Shown: positions 25,154 to 33,566 of the stretch, in pieces | How positions within the stretch are numbered: position 1 is the first letter of the stretch | How the letters are laid out: every line of letters begins with the position of its first letter | IMG/VR virus record: IMGVR_UViG_2901802297_000002 | Coordinates: 1 to 64,000 of that record | Length of the DNA: 64,000 bases | DNA from: a virus | Lineage: Duplodnaviria > Caudoviricetes | Direction: 5' to 3' (one strand) | Notes under the pieces: model-generated | What the model was told of the DNA's origin: nothing | The model's input: the letters and a program-made list of their open reading frames with translations, nothing else | The model's database searches: none | Translations under genes and position numbers: made by a program

Positions 25154-25575
25154 GCTGCCGCGCTCCTTGCCGCATACATGTACAGCTTTGCTCTCCTAAT
25201 ACCGACAACGCGCAGCAATGCTTTGGAAAGCCGCCTGCGGTCATTCATCATATTGGAAAGGTGTTTGATATTTAGGCTGTGCAACCGCGCAAAAGCCGAA
25301 TTGCCGCCAGCCTGCCTTATTGCTGTATTCAGTTTTGAATACACTTCCAGCATGGGCAGGATGTTGCCATCCACATCCACATACCGTTCAACTTCAATCA
25401 GGCCCAACGCTGCCAGCAGTTCATCATTCAGCCTGCGGCGTGCATTGGCCATGTTAGACAGTGTTTTGTCGTTCAGGCCCAACATGCGGGCAAAAGCCGA
25501 ATTGCCACCGGCTTTGCGCATGCGTGTATTCAAAAATGAATACACCGCCTCAAGATCAAAAAACACGTCAGCCAT
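25150..25575 (-). CDS. Tandem double-HTH protein
   Basis: Two ~63-aa repeats (AGGNSAFAR...LSNM...RRRL...LL..G). Confidence 0.75.
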   Translation of the reverse strand: MADVFFDLEAVYSFLNTRMRKAGGNSAFARMLGLNDKTLSNMANARRRLNDELLAALGLIEVERYVDVDGNILPMLEVYSKLNTAIRQAGGNSAFARLHSLNIKHLSNMMNDRRRLSKALLRVVGIRRAKLYMYAARSAAA

Positions 25576-26072
25576 CAGAAGCCACTAGCCTCTTGCGGAA
25601 AGGTCACCTGCAATGGCTTGCCTTCTGCAATGATCTTATGAGCTGTGGATTCAATATGATGCAGCGATGTGCGGGCACGTTGCGCATATGTGAGAATTTC
25701 TTGCGCTTCCTGCACATCCACGTTGCCATCCGCCATGCTCTCGAAGCCCTTTTGCAGAACCTCACTGGTGGCCTTGGCAAACTTACCCATATCGTGTGGC
25801 AGTGGGCCGCTTCCGAATTTAACCGGAACCAGAGCAAAGCCCTCTGCATTAGCCATTTCTGAAAGCAGAATGGGCTGCTCCGCACATCTGTCCAGATCTA
25901 TGGCAACGTCTAGTGGAATAACGGTTGGCTGATGCCGGCTGGCATAGGCTTCCAGCTGAGATTTCTGCACGCGCGTAAAACCGGCCGCAGCACGAAAATC
26001 TCCAACAGCTTCAACCGCATGTTTTGTGGCTGTTTTGATGGACGCCAGAAAGCGATTAGAAAATGGTGTCAT
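25575..26072 (-). CDS. Phage regulatory protein, CII-like
   Basis: IPLDVAIDLD...PILL.EMA..EGFALVP; SMADG.VD..EA. Confidence 0.7.
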   Translation of the reverse strand: MTPFSNRFLASIKTATKHAVEAVGDFRAAAGFTRVQKSQLEAYASRHQPTVIPLDVAIDLDRCAEQPILLSEMANAEGFALVPVKFGSGPLPHDMGKFAKATSEVLQKGFESMADGNVDVQEAQEILTYAQRARTSLHHIESTAHKIIAEGKPLQVTFPQEASGF

Positions 26073-26380: not shown

Positions 26381-26634
26381 GGCGTAAAAAACGCCTTCAG
26401 GCGTGCAAACGTAGGGCAATACAATTTCGGAAAACCGAAAACCCTCACATGGCGCACAAAATCGCGCAGTCTGGGGTAGTAAAAACAAACCGTAACGTCT
26501 TCGCTTTGCCCAAACTTTTGTATGGAAATCTCAGTTATAGCCACACCTAGCAAAAGCCGTGTGTCAGGCTGCATTCGCAGGCTATACCATGGGGCAGAAC
26601 GCAGCCAGAAACGTAGTTCATTCAGCATGATCAA
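26377..26634 (-). CDS. Hypothetical protein
   Basis: ATGA-coupled on both sides. Confidence 0.5.
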   Translation of the reverse strand: MIMLNELRFWLRSAPWYSLRMQPDTRLLLGVAITEISIQKFGQSEDVTVCFYYPRLRDFVRHVRVFGFPKLYCPTFARLKAFFTP

Positions 26635-27140
26635 CCTGCCTGCGTCTCGTCTTGAGCAGGAACGCCAACGGTAAATTCATGCCGGTTGAGTGTACCAATA
26701 TCTTCGGGCCGAAGCGGTTTTTCCAGCCCATACACAGTCGCCAAACAACCTCTGGCCCTATCCTGATAATCCACACCCATAACGTGATCACAAGACATTG
26801 TGGGCCATGCGTTTTGAGCCAAATCACGCAGCTGATACCGAAATTCCTTATTGGCATCAGCGCCATTCTGGAACTCCTGCATGATGTAAAGCAAACGGGC
26901 CAATAGCCATGTTTGTTTGGCATCCAGTTCCAGCACGGTTGCATCTTGTGAAGCATTGTTCACCTGGAGCAATGAGCTGCCGCAATCTGCCACGCTGATC
27001 ATGCAAATCGGATCAACGTCTCTTGAATTGCGCTTCTGGGAATCACTCATGCCTTCACTCCCGGCATTATGTAAAAGTGCCTTGGCTTCCTCCAAAATAC
27101 GATTTAATTCGGCCCCCAATACTTTATGGCAATCAATCAT
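26631..27140 (-). CDS. Hypothetical protein (MIDCH...)
   Basis: ATGA overlap with upstream ORF at a repeated junction. Confidence 0.55.
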   Translation of the reverse strand: MIDCHKVLGAELNRILEEAKALLHNAGSEGMSDSQKRNSRDVDPICMISVADCGSSLLQVNNASQDATVLELDAKQTWLLARLLYIMQEFQNGADANKEFRYQLRDLAQNAWPTMSCDHVMGVDYQDRARGCLATVYGLEKPLRPEDIGTLNRHEFTVGVPAQDETQAG

Positions 27141-27628
27141 GCTGCAACACCAGCATTTGCATTTTGCGGGCAATCTGTAGTGCGGGCAGCGGCGTTGTCG
27201 CCCCTGCCCGCTTCGTCCATCATGTGCTTCCCCAAACCATGAGAGGACGAATTCTTATGAAGCCGACTACGGAAGAACTGGAACGCCGCATTTCCGAACT
27301 GGAGCGTACGCAGGCCAAGATTTTGGAAGCCCTTAAAGGTGCCAACATTCTCATTCCCGGCCTGAACGCCCCGGTCGAAGAAGGAAGTATTTACGATAGA
27401 ACTGACATCTGGAAGGACTGAAGATCCAGTCTTCACGTAAGCAACCAAGCGGGCAGCCCCAACTTCCATGCTGTCCCATGATTTAGGCATGGGGTGCGGG
27501 CTGAGCAGAATTGTCTGCAAGGCCCATTTGCGCAGGGCTTGCTCATTGCTCAAACCTTCGCCCCGGACACCATCCGCGTGACGGCTTCCGGCCTCTGCGG
27601 CATGGTTGGTTTCATGGGAATCAGTCAT
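27137..27628 (-). CDS. Hypothetical protein (MTDSH...HADGVR) spanning an antisense gene
   Basis: GGAG RBS and ATGA coupling; N-terminus paralogous to 27956-28423. Confidence 0.5.
   Translation of the reverse strand: MTDSHETNHAAEAGSRHADGVRGEGLSNEQALRKWALQTILLSPHPMPKSWDSMEVGAARLVAYVKTGSSVLPDVSSIVNTSFFDRGVQAGNENVGTFKGFQNLGLRTLQFGNAAFQFFRSRLHKNSSSHGLGKHMMDEAGRGDNAAARTTDCPQNANAGVAA
27182..27223 (+). promoter_or_regulatory. Hairpin-embedded sigma70-type promoter
   Basis: TTGTCG-17-CATCAT; the -35 starts in the loop of hairpin 27182-27211. Confidence 0.6.
27257..27421 (+). CDS. Antisense mini-gene (54 aa, coiled coil)
   Basis: GAGGA RBS; MKPTTEELERRISELERTQ... Confidence 0.65.
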   Translation: MKPTTEELERRISELERTQAKILEALKGANILIPGLNAPVEEGSIYDRTDIWKD

Positions 27629-27677
27629 GCCGTAACTCCAGCATTCGCATTTTCAGGGGATCGCACCGTGAAGGAAT

Positions 27678-27717
27678 CGGGCGACACGTTGTCATGCCGC
27701 CCGCCATCGTCCATTGT
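27678..27717 (+). promoter_or_regulatory. Hairpin-embedded sigma70-type promoter
   Basis: TTGTCA-17-CATTGT; hairpin 27678-27703. Confidence 0.6.
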
Positions 27718-27752
27718 TTATTTGTCCAAAAAACAAATGGAGACGATTTCTT

Positions 27753-27959
27753 ATGCAGGATGAAAATACCAAGATGCTCAAAGAGCAGGTGCGCATTCTT
27801 CAGGGCGTTGTAAACGCATTGCTGCGCAAACTTCCTGCCAGTGAACTGGAGGATGTTCGCCGTATTGCCGAAGAATACGCCACAGGCTTTCGGGTAGAAG
27901 ACCCCATTACCCACCGCGCTCTGGATGATATTTTCAAACGCACACATCTAGATAATTAA
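27753..27959 (+). CDS. Antisense mini-gene (68 aa)
   Basis: GGAGA RBS; same GACGA.TTCTTATG leader as the 27257 gene. Confidence 0.65.
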   Translation: MQDENTKMLKEQVRILQGVVNALLRKLPASELEDVRRIAEEYATGFRVEDPITHRALDDIFKRTHLDN

Positions 27960-28423
27960 CCGCGCTCAGGAAACGCACGATTTCGCGCCATAAGCAGGCA
28001 TCCAACAGAAGCCTGCGCCGCACGGTCGTGTGTTTTCCTGCCAAGTCCAGCGGCAGTTTTGCCTGCATATTTTATTGCCAGATCCGGGCGGCAATGGCGC
28101 ATTAGCGCCAGAATGCCCTCTTCCAGAATGTGCAGGCGCCGTTCCTTTTCAACCAAAAACGCTCTTACCGGCTCAATCTGCCGAAGTTCGGCTTCTGTTT
28201 TTTCCAGATCAGAACGGCAATCTGCCAGCATGATCTTGAGCATTTCTGCCGTGAAAGACGGCCCATCTTCCAGCGGTTCATTTACAGCAAGGCCAGATGC
28301 AAACGTGTCCTGGTCAAACTGCTTTGCTTCTATTTCGGGAATCCCAAGCTTTTCGCTCCGGACACCATCCGCGTGACTGTGCGTACCGTGATTGGTAGCT
28401 TCATCGTTATGGGAATCAGTCAT
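27956..28423 (-). CDS. Hypothetical coiled-coil protein (MTDSH...)
   Basis: ATGA-coupled to cro. Confidence 0.6.
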   Translation of the reverse strand: MTDSHNDEATNHGTHSHADGVRSEKLGIPEIEAKQFDQDTFASGLAVNEPLEDGPSFTAEMLKIMLADCRSDLEKTEAELRQIEPVRAFLVEKERRLHILEEGILALMRHCRPDLAIKYAGKTAAGLGRKTHDRAAQASVGCLLMARNRAFPERG

Positions 28424-28635
28424 GCCGCAACTCCGGTGGTTTCAGGCTTCAGGAAGATGTCCGGTCGGAGTTCTTCACGAGGAATGCCGAATGCCGCCTC
28501 AATGATTGGGCAATATTGTGGAGGCACAACATCCCATTGGGCCACGGCTCCGCGTGTAATACCCAATTCGGCTGCGATCTTCGCAGATAGGCCTCTGCGT
28601 GACCGTATCAATTCCATTCCGGTGACATCGCTCAT
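28420..28635 (-). CDS. cro: Cro-like repressor (YdaS/Cro family)
   Basis: IAAELGITRGAVAQW..VP...IE...GIPREELRPD; divergent from cI. Confidence 0.88.
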   Translation of the reverse strand: MSDVTGMELIRSRRGLSAKIAAELGITRGAVAQWDVVPPQYCPIIEAAFGIPREELRPDIFLKPETTGVAA

Positions 28636-28642
28636 ATGGAAC

Positions 28643-28695
28643 GCTTAGCGTTACTGAGCGGATAAGGCAAGGAATTTTGCTTAGTGCTGATAAGC
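28643..28695. promoter_or_regulatory. OR-like operators
   Basis: 17-bp palindromes GCTTAGCGTTACTGAGC (28643) and GCTTAGTGCTGATAAGC (28679). Confidence 0.8.
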
Positions 28696-28718
28696 GCCCA
28701 TTAAGGCAGTATCGACAT

Positions 28719-29045
28719 ATGGAATTGAAAGACCTGATACGCACTGCCCGCAAAGCAAAGGGGCTATCCCAGGCTGCTTTGGCTGACCTGATACACGTCA
28801 ATAAAAGTGCAGTTGCACAATGGGAATTAGGATCTACACGCCCAACAAATGAGAGTATGGCAGCACTAAAGTCTGTTCTTTCTATAGGTGAGCAAATCTC
28901 TCCAGTCGGGTCTGCTCCATACGCTGGTGAGATCGTTGAAGATCCTGACGAACTCGCCCTCCTCCGCTTCTGGAGATCTCTGTCTATCGAGAAACGTCGG
29001 GCAGTTGTCGAGCTTCTGCATATTGGCAGACCTTCTGACTACTGA
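28719..29045 (+). CDS. cI: CI-like XRE repressor without S24 peptidase domain
   Basis: GLSQAALAD...AVAQWELG..RP HTH; short C-terminal DE.ALL..WR.L domain. Confidence 0.82.
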   Translation: MELKDLIRTARKAKGLSQAALADLIHVNKSAVAQWELGSTRPTNESMAALKSVLSIGEQISPVGSAPYAGEIVEDPDELALLRFWRSLSIEKRRAVVELLHIGRPSDY

Positions 29046-29155
29046 TTTTCGCTTCTTTCCAGACATCACTCTAAAATCTAAATTAAGTTCACATTATGTT
29101 CTTATTGGCACCTATATCAGGGCTTAGTCAATGAATTTTACGCACTAAGAATTTT

Positions 29156-29209
29156 GCTTAGCATCACTAATTTTTTCTCTTGACTGCTTAGCATTACTAA
29201 GCGTAACCA
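29156..29209 (+). promoter_or_regulatory. OL-like operators and PL-like promoter
   Basis: GCTTAGCATCACTAATT (29156) and GCTTAGCATTACTAAGC (29186) flanking TTGACT (29180). Confidence 0.8.
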
Positions 29210-29241
29210 TTTTCCATCACAACCCGTGGTGGAGAAAAACC

Positions 29242-29580
29242 GTGTCGAATACACGATACAAAATTGAAGAAACCGATGGCGGCTTTGTGCTGGTAGAAGA
29301 GCGCAAAGGGAGATTCCCTACAGAAACCCGCGTGCCCTATTCCATCGCGCAGGAAGCAGAAAGCGGAACAGACGCTGTATCCCATAACGGTGATGGGCTC
29401 AGGGATCAGCGCAAAATAGAAGCGCTTAGGTTAGCGCGATATGCCGCATCATTTTTTATCGAAAAAGATCCAGATGCCCAACACCTACTCAATATCCGTG
29501 AGCGTGTGGAAAAACTGATAACAGCTTCCATTGCGGAATTGCGCAAGAATGCGGCCGTGCCCAGCCAACAAACAGAATAA
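29242..29580 (+). CDS. Hypothetical early protein
   Basis: GGAG RBS, GTG start; first gene after the PL-like promoter. Confidence 0.6.
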   Translation: MSNTRYKIEETDGGFVLVEERKGRFPTETRVPYSIAQEAESGTDAVSHNGDGLRDQRKIEALRLARYAASFFIEKDPDAQHLLNIRERVEKLITASIAELRKNAAVPSQQTE

Positions 29581-29618
29581 TAGGCGCGGCCTATAGTTTA
29601 GATGTTAGGCGTTAGATA

Positions 29619-29810
29619 CTATTTTGGCTTTGGGTAATCTGATTTCAAGCGCTCCAAAAGGTTATAAAACTCACTGGAAACTTTAGAGTGCTCGTATTCA
29701 TCGCTTGGATCACTTCCAGAAGCAGAACGAGCACTTAAATGAGAAGCTGTTAGTATTGCAGCAGCCTGAATAAGAGCCGCCTCAATAGTTGTATCTATTT
29801 CGTCTGACAT
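29619..29810 (-). CDS. Antisense mini-gene (63 aa)
   Basis: AAGGA RBS; AT-rich; MSDEIDTTIEAALIQAAAILTA... Confidence 0.65.
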   Translation of the reverse strand: MSDEIDTTIEAALIQAAAILTASHLSARSASGSDPSDEYEHSKVSSEFYNLLERLKSDYPKPK

Positions 29811-29845
29811 AGAGTTTTTCCTTTCTTGGGTCTGTTGGCGCGCCA

Positions 29846-29886
29846 AGAATGGAAAAAGTTGGGGGAGTCTGGCAACAGGCTTCCCC
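29846..29886 (-). promoter_or_regulatory. Hairpin-embedded sigma70-type promoter
   Basis: TTGCCA-18-CATTCT on the minus strand; 11-bp hairpin 29861-29886 with GCAA loop. Confidence 0.6.
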
Positions 29887-30002
29887 TTCAAAGAGAAGCA
29901 AGATGGTTCATCAGACCAATAGGCCAGAACAGTATGTGTTCTCTCATGCACATGCTACCCTTTGCACAACACCTACACAGCACACCAAAACAGGCTTGCA
30001 GC

Positions 30003-30521
30003 ATGATACAAATACCCAAGACCACAAAATTTGGGAAAACACCCCAATCTGGTCTCAGGCTTTGGAAAGCTGCTCAGGCTATCAGGTTGGCAGAACTGCG
30101 CCTTGCAGCTCAAGCATCTGTTCTCATGGGGGCACAAGCACGCGCCACCAGTATGATTGGTTGGGTAGCCGCCGCTTTGGCCGCTTCAGCCGCCTTAGCT
30201 TTCAGCACTCCGTATCATATAGCCGGAGCGATATTGTTGGTTGGGGAAAGTATTACGGGTATTCTGGCAGTTGTAGCTATTTACCCTTGCAAATGGTCAG
30301 AAACAGGCACGCGCCCGGAAGTGTTTATGGATTCACCAGCGCAAACAGAATTAGCCTGTCAGGAATCTCTTGCTCTTTATTACCAGAATGCCATCCAGCG
30401 GAATATCGAGAGGCTAAATACTATCAGCCTACTTATATCCGCAGGATGGATTATGTTTCTAGCAACGCCAATATTAGCGTGCCTTGTTCAAATGGTAATT
30501 TTTATGCAGAAGGTGCCTTAA
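30003..30521 (+). CDS. Three-TM membrane protein
   Basis: Three hydrophobic segments; start uncertain. Confidence 0.6.
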   Translation: MIQIPKTTKFGKTPQSGLRLWKAAQAIRLAELRLAAQASVLMGAQARATSMIGWVAAALAASAALAFSTPYHIAGAILLVGESITGILAVVAIYPCKWSETGTRPEVFMDSPAQTELACQESLALYYQNAIQRNIERLNTISLLISAGWIMFLATPILACLVQMVIFMQKVP

Positions 30522-30600
30522 TCGGCCACTGCACACGCCCTGTATCATCAGCAGGCAATGGTGCCGGCCGTGGTGGATATGGCTTTTCTTTATCGCTCAT
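30502..30600 (-). CDS. Antisense Pro-rich micro-peptide (32 aa)
   Basis: GAGGA RBS; MSDKEKPYPPRPAPLPADDTGRVQWPIKAPSA. Confidence 0.5.
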   Translation of the reverse strand: MSDKEKPYPPRPAPLPADDTGRVQWPIKAPSA

Positions 30601-30631
30601 CAGTTTCCTCATCGAGTCTTGTGAACGCCCG

Positions 30632-30673
30632 ATGATGGAAAATGCGGGAGAGTACGGCAACCGTCTCTCCCGC
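30632..30673 (-). promoter_or_regulatory. Hairpin-embedded sigma70-type promoter
   Basis: TTGCCG-17-CATCAT on the minus strand; hairpin 30644-30673. Confidence 0.6.
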
Positions 30674-30705
30674 ACTTCAGCCAATAAAATGGCAGGGGCA
30701 AGCGC

Positions 30706-30963
30706 ATGAACGCCATTCCCTGCCCTGCGCATCTCAATGCATTCAAAATGGCACAATCAGCACATCGCCGCGCGGCGCTTATTCGCGTGCAGGCAGATGC
30801 CCTGATGGCGCATTCCTTCATGCTGGAAACCTATCACCGCGCATGTAGGGCCAGTGAAAACCATTATGGCGCGGAATCATGGCGCAAGCTTGCGCACCAT
30901 GCCCGTGAAGAAGCCGAGCTTCTCTATACCCGCGCCAATATCCTCGAAAGCTACATCAAATGA
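30706..30963 (+). CDS. Hypothetical early protein
   Basis: AGGGG RBS; coupled chain. Confidence 0.6.
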   Translation: MNAIPCPAHLNAFKMAQSAHRRAALIRVQADALMAHSFMLETYHRACRASENHYGAESWRKLAHHAREEAELLYTRANILESYIK

Positions 30964-31190
30964 ACAATCACGCCTTTCAGGCTGCCCGCACGCAGCTGGA
31001 GCAGCTCATCCACAACAATGTGGACAGCAAAGAAAAGCTGGCCATGCTTTCCCTGGTCAAAGACATGGCCAACGCCATGGAAGCAGAACAGGACATTGCA
31101 GATACTGCCCTGCGCATCGGCTATGCCAAGCGCCGCACCCCGCTGGCACGCATTCAGGACTTCATTCTGGGTGAAGTGAGGGCTGCATAA
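30960..31190 (+). CDS. Hypothetical early protein
   Basis: ATGA coupling; ends EVRAA. Confidence 0.6.
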   Translation: MNNHAFQAARTQLEQLIHNNVDSKEKLAMLSLVKDMANAMEAEQDIADTALRIGYAKRRTPLARIQDFILGEVRAA

Positions 31191-31525
31191 TGACCACCAA
31201 AAAAGAACAGGCGCTCCGTGAGTTGGACAAAACTTATGCGGAATTCAAGGCGCATATCCAATCTGCCCCACAAGATGCCAATTTCAGTCTGGCAGCAGTA
31301 ATGAATGTAATAGAGAATAAGGGATACCGTCCCGCCATATCTGTAAGCGGAAATAATCCGGGCGATATTGTTTTGGCTGCTGCAACTATATTTGGCTTTG
31401 CTTCTGGTTTCTATCCAACATTCAAAAATCCGGACGATTTCAGGGCAACTATGAATGCAGGCATCCAATGCGGACAAGGCGAATTTCCTGAAGAAGCAGC
31501 ACCATGTTCAACCACCAAGCATTAA
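31190..31525 (+). CDS. Hypothetical early protein
   Basis: TAATG coupling. Confidence 0.6.
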   Translation: MTTKKEQALRELDKTYAEFKAHIQSAPQDANFSLAAVMNVIENKGYRPAISVSGNNPGDIVLAAATIFGFASGFYPTFKNPDDFRATMNAGIQCGQGEFPEEAAPCSTTKH

Positions 31526-32305: not shown

Positions 32306-32541
32306 TGAGAGGAATGATTGCAGCACCTACCCGCCGTATTCTCAACATGAAGGAAGCGGCTTCATACATGGGTATGTCTGTAACCACATTCAGGGAGCAA
32401 GTCGCGCCGCAAGTAAAAGGTGTAAGGGTGCTGCCGAAGCGCATTAGCTACGATGTAGAGGAATTAAACAGCTTTATTGATCGTATGTCAGGGAAATCAA
32501 CGGATTCTCACGAACAGAATTTCTGGGATAAATTCAGGTGA
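32302..32541 (+). CDS. xis: Excisionase-like HTH protein
   Basis: L...EAASYMGMS.TTF...YD..EL..FID; directly upstream of int. Confidence 0.75.
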   Translation: MMRGMIAAPTRRILNMKEAASYMGMSVTTFREQVAPQVKGVRVLPKRISYDVEELNSFIDRMSGKSTDSHEQNFWDKFR

Positions 32542-33566
32542 CAATCATACGCCTGAAATACGTTCACAAGTTCCCCGGCCGCAATGGGAAGACTCGTTAT
32601 TATCTCAGAAAGCCGGGGCATAAGCAGGCTAAGCTGCCAGATCCATCCAGCCCAGATTTCTATGCCGAATATCTGCGCCTCCTGAATGGGGACGCCCCAA
32701 AGATAGAAGTGCAGAAGTCTAAAACGATTGAAGGCAGCTTGCTTGACCTTATCGTGCAGTGGAAAACATCCCACAAATATAAAACCATCAAACAGAGCAC
32801 GAAACAGGTATATGATCGGCTTCTGAACAGAATAGCTGCAATGGATTGCGCTCAAGGCGCGGTCAAGCATATGGCTCCGCAAAATATTCGCTTCATCATG
32901 CGCCAATATGAAGAGGCAGGCCCCACAACAGCCAACCGCATATTAAGCATTCTCAGCATGATGCTGGACTACGCCATAGATATTGGCTGGCGTGATGATA
33001 ACCCTGCCGTGGGTATTAAGCGCCTGCAAATAAAATCCAAGGGCCTGCATTCTTGGTCTGATGCAGAGATTGAGAAATATCAGTCGCATTGGCCTACAGG
33101 CACAAAGCAGCGTCTGGCATTTGCTTTATTATTATATACGGGCCAGCGCAGAAGTGATGTTGTGCGCATGCGCCCAGATGATGTGTCTAGCGGAAGCATT
33201 AAGGTCACACAGCAGAAAACTGGGGCAAAGCTGGACATCCCCATTCATCCGAAACTTCAGGCAGAACTGAATGCTTGGCAGGATGTCGGTGCAGGAACAT
33301 TCCTTGCCACAGAGTATGGCAAGCCGTTTTCTGTGAACGGATTTTATAACAATTTTTCGGAATGGTGTCAGGAAGCCGGATTGCCCAAAGGATGCAGCCC
33401 ACATGGGTTGCGCAAAGCAGCAGCCAGACTGCTTGCAGAAGCCGGCTGCACCACGCACCAGATCGCATCCATCACAGGGCACAAGACTCTATCAGAGGTG
33501 GAAAGATATACCCGTGCTGTGGAGCAGAAACGCCTAGCTCAAGAGGCCATGATCAAGATTGAATAA
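32538..33566 (+). CDS. int: Tyrosine integrase
   Basis: YTGQRRSD, QQKTG, HGLRK, GH.T..EVERY. Confidence 0.93.
   Translation: MTIIRLKYVHKFPGRNGKTRYYLRKPGHKQAKLPDPSSPDFYAEYLRLLNGDAPKIEVQKSKTIEGSLLDLIVQWKTSHKYKTIKQSTKQVYDRLLNRIAAMDCAQGAVKHMAPQNIRFIMRQYEEAGPTTANRILSILSMMLDYAIDIGWRDDNPAVGIKRLQIKSKGLHSWSDAEIEKYQSHWPTGTKQRLAFALLLYTGQRRSDVVRMRPDDVSSGSIKVTQQKTGAKLDIPIHPKLQAELNAWQDVGAGTFLATEYGKPFSVNGFYNNFSEWCQEAGLPKGCSPHGLRKAAARLLAEAGCTTHQIASITGHKTLSEVERYTRAVEQKRLAQEAMIKIE

Follow-up and report, generated by a model that had tools for sequence, protein, structure and literature searches.

A recurrent cassette of promoter-like boxes and an RNA hairpin ahead of antisense genes in the early operons of Acetobacter prophages

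The window, the whole stretch of 64,000 nucleotides analysed here, covers positions 1 to 64,000 of the Caudoviricetes record IMGVR_UViG_2901802297_000002, whose full length is 79,715 b. A cI-like HTH repressor gene lies at 28719..29045 on the + strand (HTH_3, E = 5.5e-11). The left early operon begins with a Cro/YdaS-like gene (28420..28635, - strand) whose stop overlaps the next ATG, and it also encodes a CII-like activator (25575..26072, - strand; phrog_101, E = 2.1e-18) that scores 18.7 bits against Pfam Phage_CP76, under the 26-bit cut-off. Four antisense genes are present at the starts given by the initial annotation, 27257(+), 27753(+), 29810(-) and 30600(-), and encode 54, 68, 63 and 32 aa. 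As claimed there, all four oppose their own operon, point toward the cI-like gene and have good RBSs, each being preceded by an AGGA/GGAG-type Shine-Dalgarno site.

Antisense gene 1 (27257..27421, + strand) sits within an open sense frame (27628..27137), and its RBS and start codon follow 62 nt past the TTG of the motif described below. Comparison with its homologue at related locus L159 showed 14, 8 and 32 substitutions at codon positions 1, 2 and 3, a third-position bias. Antisense gene 2 (27753..27959, + strand) has three relatives of 81-85% identity, each of 68 aa. Antisense gene 3 (29619..29810, - strand) carries the motif EAALIQAA and has homologues at loci L152, L155, L157, L179, L162 and L156. 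Antisense ORF 4 (30502..30600, - strand) is proline-rich and is the least convincing gene among the four; at locus L180, a 168-aa gene lies behind the same element subtype as that of ORF 4.

The motif TTGYCR-N17/18-CATnnT occurs ahead of the four genes exactly at 27195(+), 27689(+), 29875(-) and 30660(-). Element 1 (27175..27234, operon-sense on the - strand; covariance-model match of 69.7 bits) has the boxes TTGTCG (-35, 27195-27200) and CATCAT (-10, 27218-27223) on the + strand and an RNA hairpin with the loop ACAA on the - strand (27182-27211). Element 2 (27669..27728, - strand; 65.4 bits) has TTGTCA (27689-27694) and CATTGT (27712-27717) on the + strand, and its - strand hairpin (27678-27703) has the loop ACAA and two to three G·U pairs. 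Element 3 (29835..29895, + strand), a covariance-model match of the subtype with an 18-nt spacer, has TTGCCA (29875-29870) and CATTCT (29851-29846) on the - strand, and its + strand hairpin (29861-29886) has a GCAA tetraloop and two G·U pairs in the fold. Element 4 (30621..30680, + strand; 56.4 bits) has TTGCCG (30660-30655) and CATCAT (30637-30632) on the - strand and a + strand hairpin (30643-30672) with the loop (G)CAA.

All four hairpins are GC-rich and place the TTG within the loop and their 3' arm within the spacer, the arrangement that had been described as a -35 in a hairpin loop. The sense loops also agree with the reported stem-loops centred on G(A/G)CAAC on the lytic transcript. Operon-sense folding of elements 1 to 4 gave -28.3, -23.5, -22.0 and -26.7 kcal/mol, with z-scores of -5.8, -3.0, -3.5 and -5.0; the other strand gave -14.6 kcal/mol for element 2 and -11.6 kcal/mol for element 3. 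In the whole record the motif has 6 matches vs 2.7 +/- 1.6 in shuffles, 5 of the 6 reading TCCAT. When the 132 G[AG]CAAC sites of the record are ranked by hairpin stability, the top five are the four elements and one at record position 69862, outside the window, and a covariance-model search of the record gave 6 matches, two of them beyond the window. The original observation is confirmed as correct and far above chance.

Related loci were retrieved with the CII-like gene as query; public runs containing the region held only assembled contigs of related prophages. The covariance model that had been proposed as a check was built, and it found 59 copies (E < 1e-3) in the window and 36 related viral loci (37 sequences). 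All matches are operon-sense in orientation and lie on both sides of the immunity region; each operon contains at least two, every one directly following an antisense gene. The published phage phiAP1 has two matches, directly upstream of its two annotated antisense early genes. A search of Rfam gave no match for the element. The cassette is shown to recur as a family in early operons of Acetobacter prophages.

The claim that the stem sequences differ while the architecture is kept is borne out by strong covariation with compensatory changes. Paired cells make up 90.9% of the stem alignment, vs 66.1% in shuffles and 35-53% with the partners slid; 12 of the 13 stem pairs have changes on both sides, and the covariation score of 0.612 (vs 0.219) was reached by none of 500 shuffles. 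Read operon-sense, 38 unique stems contain 380 Watson-Crick, 70 G·U, 6 A·C and 32 other pairs, and in the inner 10 pairs G·U outnumbers A·C by 51 to 1. In a strand-neutral re-detection, the sense strand gave the more stable fold for 46 hairpins and the other strand for 12. Because the stem covaries and its G·U pairs fall almost only on the sense strand, the structure belongs to the lytic, operon-sense transcript as an RNA hairpin and is not a DNA palindrome. An inverted repeat centred on the -35 could also be a protein operator or a cruciform; however, the same strand bias and covariation already contradict a palindrome acting at the DNA level, and even within one phage the arms differ between copies while pairing is kept, which makes such a palindrome extremely unlikely.

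The stems are 11-13 bp long and capped by tetraloops, frequently GCAA, with the loop choice limited to NCAA rather than extending to stable loops generally, and an A-rich run lies 5' of the hairpin in the alignment. Close to the base of the stem, two positions keep a G-C pair in a fixed orientation (50/53 and 51/52 sequences), which RNA stability alone does not account for.

The sense strand carries a second feature, missed by the initial annotation: a short reading frame through the hairpin. On this strand, the -10 CAT reads in reverse complement as a start codon, which varies only among ATG, GTG and TTG. Of 49 unique standard copies, 42 have a frame of 16-37 codons that begins with this codon and runs through the hairpin to a stop touching the next start, and 7 lack such a coupled frame. 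The overlap is xTGA in 39/49, and a GGAG-like RBS is embedded ahead of the junction. The coupled frames have 15 different lengths, and coupling phase is kept by 26 of 31 downstream genes that were found independently. In the window, the frame of element 1 (27137..27223, - strand; MMDEAGRGDN...GVAA*) ends in a TGA overlapping the ATG at 27140, where the next sense gene begins, that of element 2 (27625..27714, - strand; 29 codons, MDDGGRHDN...GVTA*) overlaps the ATG at 27628, and that of element 4 (30632..30709, + strand; MMENAGEYGN...GASA*) overlaps the ATG at 30706. Element 3 has no short frame: its sense ATG at 29849 shares a frame with the ATG at 29903, and the frame spans 286 codons through a different gene. 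The stop/ATG overlap of the Cro/YdaS-like gene is made by the same repeated junction. At the short-frame start codon the alignment shows an RBS that is weak at best, and the stable stem starts ~10-13 nt past this codon, which could impede rather than aid initiation.

The phase of the short frame tends to stay open across the antisense coding sequence. Long shadow antisense frames are common in this genome (stops in the codon-aligned shadow frame amount to 1.62% in 17 control genes vs 1.43% in the antisense genes); the excess therefore rests on a phase-specific test. With codon usage borrowed from structural genes and loci that are mutually related, this test found the phase stop-free in 34/58 cases vs 10.2 expected, or 17.3/25 vs 5.1 expected when weighted by protein cluster, and the other two phases open in 2 and 4.

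These features bear on what the hairpin does on the lytic transcript. Its reading as a boxB-like antitermination (nut) site, paired with a promoter on the opposite strand, drew on the G(A/G)CAAC loops and on the presence of elements in both repressor-controlled early operons. However, a boxB has a 5-bp stem and a pentaloop, whereas the stems here measure 11-13 bp and end in tetraloops; each operon has at least two copies, which always directly follow an antisense gene and are not close to the operon promoter. Matches to a boxA-like motif show no enrichment (26 vs 35 expected) and lie within 100 nt upstream of just one of the four elements; no N-like family was found among the 20 early proteins scanned, and Rfam again offers no match. 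Stem and loop size, copy number, position and the boxA count all speak against antitermination, which is very unlikely. The dual-use element itself is real and conserved, with signals on both strands; what finds no support is the nut function of the sense strand. It is also possible, if rather unlikely, that the hairpin serves mainly in processing or stability of the lytic mRNA with the short frame secondary, either as a protective 5'/3' stem-loop beside an A-rich RNase E-type site or as a survivor of RNase III cleavage of the sense/antisense duplex. A GC-rich sense-strand RNA hairpin of this length, often with GCAA, that follows an A-rich run and is located immediately beyond the region where the antisense mRNA would pair would suit such a role, but it leaves unexplained the NCAA restriction, the 15 frame lengths that all keep the coupling phase and the opening of the same phase across the antisense gene.

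On the antisense-gene strand, TTG and, 17-18 nt downstream, CAT..T are invariant, as is the spacing, and the only other fixed features are the two oriented G-C pairs at the stem base. The invariant alignment columns are A12, ATGG at 15-18 and CAA in the loop. In a report on Gluconobacter oxydans (PMC5756330), the promoter consensus is given as ttGnnn / 16-23 nt / nAtnnn, with a first -10 base of c in 39% and t in 40%. The TTG and CAT..T boxes fit this Acetobacteraceae consensus, and a start codon with RBS follows 59-66 nt past the TTG in 50/57 unique copies, supporting the proposed promoter. Alternatively, the element could act in RNA only, the TTG being the loop and the CAT the start codon, with the antisense genes transcribed from elsewhere. 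Loop and start codon are both sense-strand features, and the start-codon position indeed varies only among ATG, GTG and TTG. Neither RNA nor reading frame explains the invariant A three bases 5' of the start codon, which is the T at the last -10 position, nor the constant 17/18-nt spacing; the RBS and start of a different gene recur at the fixed distance, and both annotated antisense early genes of phiAP1 have the element. This alternative is quite unlikely.

Whether the predicted promoters are constitutive, as first proposed, is uncertain, and the CII-like gene leaves room for activator dependence. They could form an establishment regulon switched on by this protein, as lambda PRE/PI/PaQ or 186 pE are, firing only after infection and toward cI so as to damp lytic expression, with part of the inverted repeat serving as the two half-sites of the activator around the -35. 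The half-sites of 186 pE have a two-turn spacing. PMC8538670 describes 186 CII as a product of the lytic transcript that activates pE through promoter-distal and promoter-proximal half-sites. The left operon encodes the CII-like protein (with its Phage_CP76 score below cut-off), the element often lies directly upstream of the CII-like gene in relatives, every copy is antisense to lytic operons and toward cI, and the two oriented G-C pairs flank the -35 at a mutual distance of roughly two helical turns. However, the boxes already match the host consensus at ideal spacing, so that an activator is unneeded on paper. The conserved 'half-site' is merely 2-3 bases and the remaining stem varies, even among the four copies of one phage. 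Such a regulon also leaves the G·U strand bias and the sense reading frame unexplained, and an accessory-like protein gene with a good RBS stands behind each promoter. We regard it as rather unlikely.

The genes behind the element in the relatives are diverse and encode 28-290 aa, wider than the micro-proteins first described. They include phrog_3983 (E = 1e-44) in 4/38 and WYL in 6/38, and only these domain-level WYL hits point to the suggested role in defence. At the level of sequence, family matches, third-position-biased substitution and the conserved 68-aa protein show that the cargo genes are real, and the cargo looks like prophage accessory genes.

Taken together, the cassette is probably a conserved, compact means by which a temperate Acetobacter phage carries backward-facing accessory genes (morons) in repressor-controlled early operons, combining a promoter with a sense-strand coupling device. 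On the antisense strand, TTGYCR-N17/18-CATnnT would give the moron a host sigma-70-type promoter. The role of the cassette on the sense strand would be to keep ribosomes moving along the lytic mRNA, or to bring them back, over the stretch occupied by the inserted antisense gene, the short frame handing ribosomes to the next sense gene by coupling. Downstream lytic genes would thereby be shielded from polarity by a natural 'bicistronic design' leader, and the hairpin would be a structural part of the device. Most likely it would act as an insulator or pause site, allowing ribosomes to load, or to catch up, where the frame begins; less likely, it would be a 5'-proximal stabiliser after cleavage of a sense/antisense duplex; and least likely, it would make the lytic polymerase pause on top of the moron promoter.

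Several known systems share parts of this arrangement. The nut sites of lambda and P22 consist of boxA and boxB and likewise place a stem-loop with an A-rich, GNRA-like loop on early lytic transcripts, but they differ in stem length, loop size, copy number and position, and neither boxA nor an N-like protein was found here. Lambda PRE, PI and PaQ are CII-activated antisense promoters; as with these and 186 pE, several promoters of one design lie antisense in lytic operons toward cI, with a CII-like gene in the early operon. Unlike them, the hexamers here are near-consensus and each predicted promoter heads its own protein gene, and inspection of elements 1 and 2 by eye revealed no repeat of the lambda TTGC-N6-TTGC type. 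The trp leader attenuator, with its leader-peptide and pause-hairpin arrangement, likewise has a short frame beginning immediately 5' of a stable hairpin, an order that could keep ribosome and polymerase in step; here, however, no terminator or U-tract follows the hairpin, there are no regulatory codons and the frame ends in a coupling overlap. Translational coupling by ATGA stop/start overlap and the synthetic 'bicistronic design' leader share the short leading frame, the embedded RBS and the stop overlapping the start of the expressed gene. In contrast to that design, the start of the natural leader falls within the reverse-complemented -10 of a predicted promoter; this leader holds a conserved 11-13-bp hairpin and is usually continuous with a frame open antisense through another gene. 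Morons with their own promoter are a concept from the lambdoid phages HK97 and HK022. In Pseudomonas phage Fc02 (PMC9936078), antisense early-region genes that lie upstream of the repressor and opposite an early lytic gene are expressed in lysogeny and give superinfection exclusion. As in these cases, the genes here are extra genes in phage operons with their own predicted promoter and are presumably expressed in the prophage. Unlike them, they oppose the early operon and share one stereotyped cassette (59 copies) that also bears sense-strand signals.

The motif TTGYCR-N17/18-CATnnT stands at 27195(+), 27689(+), 29875(−) and 30660(−) (elements 1 to 4), at the positions given in the initial annotation. 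Under each copy lies a GC-rich hairpin with the TTG in its loop and the 3' arm filling the spacer, and 60-65 nt past the TTG starts an antisense reading frame with a good ribosome-binding site (genes 1 to 4 at 27257(+), 27753(+), 29810(−) and 30600(−), of 54, 68, 63 and 32 aa), both as first described. The whole record contains 6 matches to the motif, compared with 2.7 ± 1.6 in shuffled sequences, and five of the six carry TCCAT. Ranking of the hairpins at the 132 G[AG]CAAC sites of the record showed that the most stable five are the four elements and a copy at 69862, which falls in a second, related immunity region beyond the window. A record-wide search with a covariance model of the element gave 6 matches. 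The second immunity region (68000-72200 of the record, corresponding to the viral loci L178/L001; the record itself is G000) contains cro-like, cI-like and CII-like genes and carries two further elements, at 69838-69897 and 70609-70636. Thus, the 'provirus' record holds two related prophages or prophage remnants.

The covariance model was built from 27 unique elements on the operon-sense strand, that is, the strand of the lytic early transcript, and 36 related viral loci were retrieved with an alignment of the CII-like protein. A search of the kind that the initial annotation had proposed, run on the window and these loci, gave 59 matches at E < 1e-3, all 59 of them operon-sense and distributed on both sides of the immunity region. 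Two matches lie in Acetobacter phage phiAP1, directly upstream of both of its only two annotated antisense early genes. The 59 matches and the phiAP1 copies indicate that the elements form a family rather than a coincidence. PhiAP1 has been published as an A. pasteurianus phage inducible by mitomycin, and the searched text of that paper makes no mention of the element (PMC8566455). No description of the element was found in the published literature searched, and Rfam covariance models gave no match at E ≤ 1 in 26500-31500 of the window. The element was also not found in 151 alphaproteobacterial genomes sampled by class and searched with the model. Weak matches of at most 29.5 bits occurred in 20 of these genomes; three of the four inspected are ordinary terminators with GCAA loops and one has no comparable hairpin. 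Scans of viral contigs with single proteins of 68, 155 and 172 aa found no relatives, and a 40-nt degenerate DNA pattern was run on contigs from genomes (49 loci) and from metagenomes (99 loci). Hairpin filtering showed that these matches were due to chance, two viral loci being the only true hits. One subtype has the −10 sequence CACGAT, with a GTG start on the sense strand (L169:3956, L170:3080 and 4640, L171:4939, L174, L176 and L178:2055). It contains a second perfect 10-bp inverted repeat (CTCACGATGG...CCATCGTGAG) over the −10 and the predicted start region, and stands ahead of membrane WYL-domain genes of 150-290 aa.

The record, of which the window is the first 64 kb, is a 79.7-kb IMG/VR provirus. 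Its closest named phage is phiAP1 (83% identity over 418 bases), and Acetobacter malorum is the source named for a relative of one mini-protein. The elements surround an immunity region with a cI-like HTH gene (28719-29045, +) and a Cro/YdaS-like gene (28635-28420, −). The left early operon includes the CII-like gene of the conserved 'IKTATK' early protein (26072-25575, −), and the right early operon (+) runs from 29242, behind the second set of operator-like palindromes, to near the integrase gene (32538-33566). These palindromes, GCTTAGC...ACTAAGC, were seen by eye at 28640-28700 in the cro/cI gap and at 29140-29205 past cI and before the right operon, a lambda-like two-operator layout by the same inspection. 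A gene junction with an embedded ribosome-binding site and an ATGA stop/start overlap is repeated at 27034-27061, 27123-27170, 27611-27658 and 28406-28453; it also holds the start of MTDSH/MSDSQ-type proteins and links cro to the next gene too. The early frames 27956-28423 and 27137-27628 (−) have a paralogous N terminus in common (MTDSH..HADGVR). The latter, of 163 codons, is gene-like in approximately its first 70 codons only, the remainder being an open frame antisense to gene 1. The 24 public runs listed for the region are all assembled contigs, and none shares more than 0.24 of the sampled words. Four contig sets examined are related prophages with module rearrangements, whose joints lie at the repeated junctions (27613 to 28409, skipping 795; 27036 to 27615; 27024 to 27619). 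As the contigs join junction copies directly, whole modules between the copies are gained and lost by recombination.

The stem structure of the hairpin belongs to the RNA of the lytic, operon-sense transcript, and the asymmetry between the strands is decisive. The 38 unique stems contain 380 Watson-Crick, 70 G·U, 6 A·C and 32 other pairs, and the inner ten pairs alone contain 51 G·U compared with one A·C. The main constraint can therefore not be a palindrome or operator at the DNA level. Since the complement of a G·U pair is an A·C mismatch, elements 2 and 3 fold better on the sense strand (−23.5 vs. −14.6 kcal/mol and −22.0 vs. −11.6 kcal/mol on the other strand, the latter with z about −0.1). 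Strand-blind detection gave 64 hairpins: the sense strand is the stabler in 46 and the opposite strand in 12, which are mostly unrelated sequences, and 6 show no difference. Covariation of the stem, whose absence was to count against the original proposal, is present: 12 of 13 stem pairs show changes on both sides, the covariation score is 0.612 vs. 0.219 and was equalled in none of 500 shuffles, and 90.9% of the cells are paired, compared with 66.1% after shuffling and 35-53% with slid partners, figures that lean toward structure as the alignment was fitted to it and the sequences are related. Two G-C pairs at the stem base (A3 alignment columns 27/65 and 28/64) keep one orientation in 50/53 and 51/52 cases, although the neighbouring pairs flip freely; pairing alone does not account for this. 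The position of the hairpin is fixed relative to the promoter hexamers, and its distance to the gene junction ranges from 30 to 87 nt. An intrinsic terminator was rejected, since no U-tract follows the hairpin on the sense strand; genuine terminators in the 151 genomes scored at most 29.5 bits against the model. Inspection of the alignment by eye found no X XXY YYZ slippery heptamer, as used in programmed frameshifting, before the stems.

On the antisense strand, the element fits the sigma-70-type promoter consensus of the Acetobacteraceae and is a predicted promoter. Outside the stem, the invariant positions are the loop CAA, which reads TTG in the antisense direction, and ATGG with an A three bases upstream of it, which together read C-C-A-T..T. 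Neither TTG nor C-A-T..T varies among the 27 unique copies, and the two are spaced by 17 nt, or by 18 nt in one subtype. No sense-strand feature was found that explains the invariant A, which is the T at the last −10 position. In a primary-transcript mapping of Gluconobacter oxydans, a member of the family whose consensus is applied here, promoters read ttGnnn and nAtnnn separated by 16-23 nt, with t (40%) or c (39%) as the first −10 base and 5'-UTR lengths peaking at 10-40 nt (PMC5756330). The implied leader of the antisense genes is ~23-30 nt. The main live rival is that the elements could be activator-dependent establishment promoters rather than constitutive ones. It is suggested by the CII-like gene of the left operon (phrog_101, E = 2.1e-18), whose match to Pfam Phage_CP76 is weak (18.7 bits, under the 26-bit cut-off). 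A check for half-sites of the type expected of such promoters showed only the two orientation-fixed G-C pairs as conserved, and the −35 is good rather than poor. Lambda-type TTGC-N6-TTGC repeats were not seen by eye in elements 1 and 2.

The genes behind this predicted promoter are, at least in part, real genes, as judged from their sequences. The unique antisense reading frames behind the element number 57, range from 28 to 290 aa and start 59-66 nt past the TTG in 50 cases. Among 38 antisense proteins scanned, phrog_3983 was found in four (best E = 1e-44), phrog_6785 in seven and the Pfam WYL domain in six. The initial label of 'mini-genes' is therefore too narrow; the cassette would drive accessory genes that are diverse in size and kind. 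Between gene 1 and its homologue in the related locus L159, 14 substitutions fall on first, 8 on second and 32 on third codon positions, and these third positions serve as first positions in the overlapping sense frame. For protein 2, three relatives were found, each of 68 aa and with 81-85% identity. The least secure of the four as a gene is frame 4, whose 32-aa product is proline-rich. A real protein gene with its own predicted promoter within an operon would place these genes among the morons. Terminator-like hairpins lie past gene 3 (29594-29580, − strand) and, weakly, past gene 2 (28019-28032, + strand); none was seen after genes 1 and 4 in the window. The short GC hairpin past gene 3 lies between that gene and the convergent gene 29242-29580 (+), and its site is the sole place without any sense frame open across the antisense gene.

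The sense strand contains a second code, which the initial annotation overlooked. The reverse complement of the −10 is exclusively a start codon (ATG, GTG or TTG) in the unique copies. In 42 of the 49 unique standard copies, it opens a short frame of 16-37 codons, in 15 different lengths, that runs through the hairpin, reads the loop as Gly/Asp-Asn and stops overlapping or abutting another start; the overlap is xTGA in 39 of the 49. A GGAG-like site embedded in the short frame lies 7-8 nt ahead of the ATG of the next gene. When downstream genes were found without regard to frame, 26 of 31 were in the coupling phase, compared with one third expected. Elements 1, 2 and 4 of the window have a coupled short frame, with the next genes at 27140, 27628 and 30706. 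The start codon of the subtype with the 18-nt spacer (element 3) differs in that it shares its frame with the start of the downstream gene itself, which lies 18 codons further along. The stop/start overlap and the embedded ribosome-binding site together point to a translational-coupling leader.

The frame in phase with the short frame is frequently open across the antisense gene as well. It is stop-free over the entire antisense coding sequence in 34 of 58 unique cases, compared with 10.2 expected from synonymous-codon resampling with the phage's own usage, as taken from structural genes and among loci related to each other. The remaining two phases are stop-free in 2 and 4 cases, and weighting by protein cluster gave 17.3 of 25 compared with 5.1 expected. 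An open shadow frame by itself was rejected as proof of translation, as shadow-frame stops are equally scarce in 17 control genes (1.62%) and in morons (1.43%). The open frames, however, fall into phase classes of 32, 12 and 14 and so do not always coincide with the codon-aligned shadow frame, and the stop-poverty of shadow frames thus does not account for the excess. In the right operon of the window, a 286-codon frame (29849-30709, +) has no stop where it crosses the same-strand membrane-protein gene 30003-30521, which is read in a different frame, and it closes at the ATGA of the next gene at 30706 (P = 0.011 by synonymous resampling); its equivalent in locus L157 has 449 codons. The excess of open frames, together with the conserved phase of the short frame, is indirect evidence for obligatory read-through translation of the antisense genes, and we infer from this excess a selection for unbroken ribosome traffic on the lytic mRNA.

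In the mechanism considered most likely, host RNA polymerase would use TTGYCR/CATnnT in the lysogen, and the antisense accessory gene would be expressed. After induction, the lytic transcript would be translated across the antisense gene, or ribosomes would re-initiate at the start codon of the cassette. The ribosome would then pass the hairpin, terminate on the start of the next gene and re-initiate there, and this coupled re-initiation would let the downstream lytic genes escape polarity. The hairpin may act as a structure that pauses or insulates where the footprint of the initiating ribosome ends, as a 5' stabiliser once the sense/antisense duplex is cleaved, or as a pause site that holds the lytic polymerase over the moron promoter. 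It is conceivable, though rather doubtful, that the element represents a new class of two-strand cis-element, which this phage lineage uses as a portable 'insertion adaptor' for any antisense accessory gene between translationally coupled lytic genes without polarity. Three codes would then share ~60 bp, the promoter on one strand and the start codon and structured RNA on the other. Ribosomes on the lytic mRNA would continue directly across the antisense gene, as suggested by the frame that is open in more than three times the expected cases. The hairpin would be the switch tying both strands together, for example by pausing the lytic polymerase-ribosome complex over the moron promoter, which would turn the promoter off in lytic growth and re-load ribosomes for the next gene.

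If the insertion-adaptor reading is true, it would show how a temperate phage can carry accessory genes of opposite orientation in its essential lytic operons and leave these operons intact. The element would rank among the rare, well-supported cases in which one short sequence carries signals on both strands, here a promoter, a start codon and a covarying RNA hairpin, and selection on the antisense-overlapping frame would favour translation as such rather than a protein product. In acetic acid bacteria, a group of industrial use, the covariance model is a practical marker for accessory genes of prophages together with their promoters, and the presence of the cassette in the inducible phage phiAP1 makes direct testing possible.

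The element is assembled from known parts, namely a moron promoter, translational coupling and a structured RNA; their three-way overlap is unusual. The initial annotation was right in spirit in proposing use of both strands, but the RNA function it specified, a boxB-like signal, does not hold in stem length, loop size, copy number, position or boxA. BoxA-like motifs gave 26 matches compared with 35 expected and lie within 100 nt upstream of only one of the four elements. A lambda-type nut site would occur once beside each early promoter, whereas both operons here have two elements, all placed behind antisense genes. The early proteins scanned contained no N-like arginine-rich antiterminator family, small N proteins being hard to detect. 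Lambda nut sites have a boxB of a 5-bp stem with a GNRA-like pentaloop and an upstream boxA, whereas the stems here are of 11-13 bp with 4-nt loops. The proposed solution to polarity and convergent transcription would also be unlike lambda antitermination, in that the lytic message would stay translated and coupled to the next gene. The lambda promoters PRE and PaQ are activator-dependent establishment promoters. The activator-dependent alternative would liken the antisense promoters to these and to 186 pE (PMC8538670).
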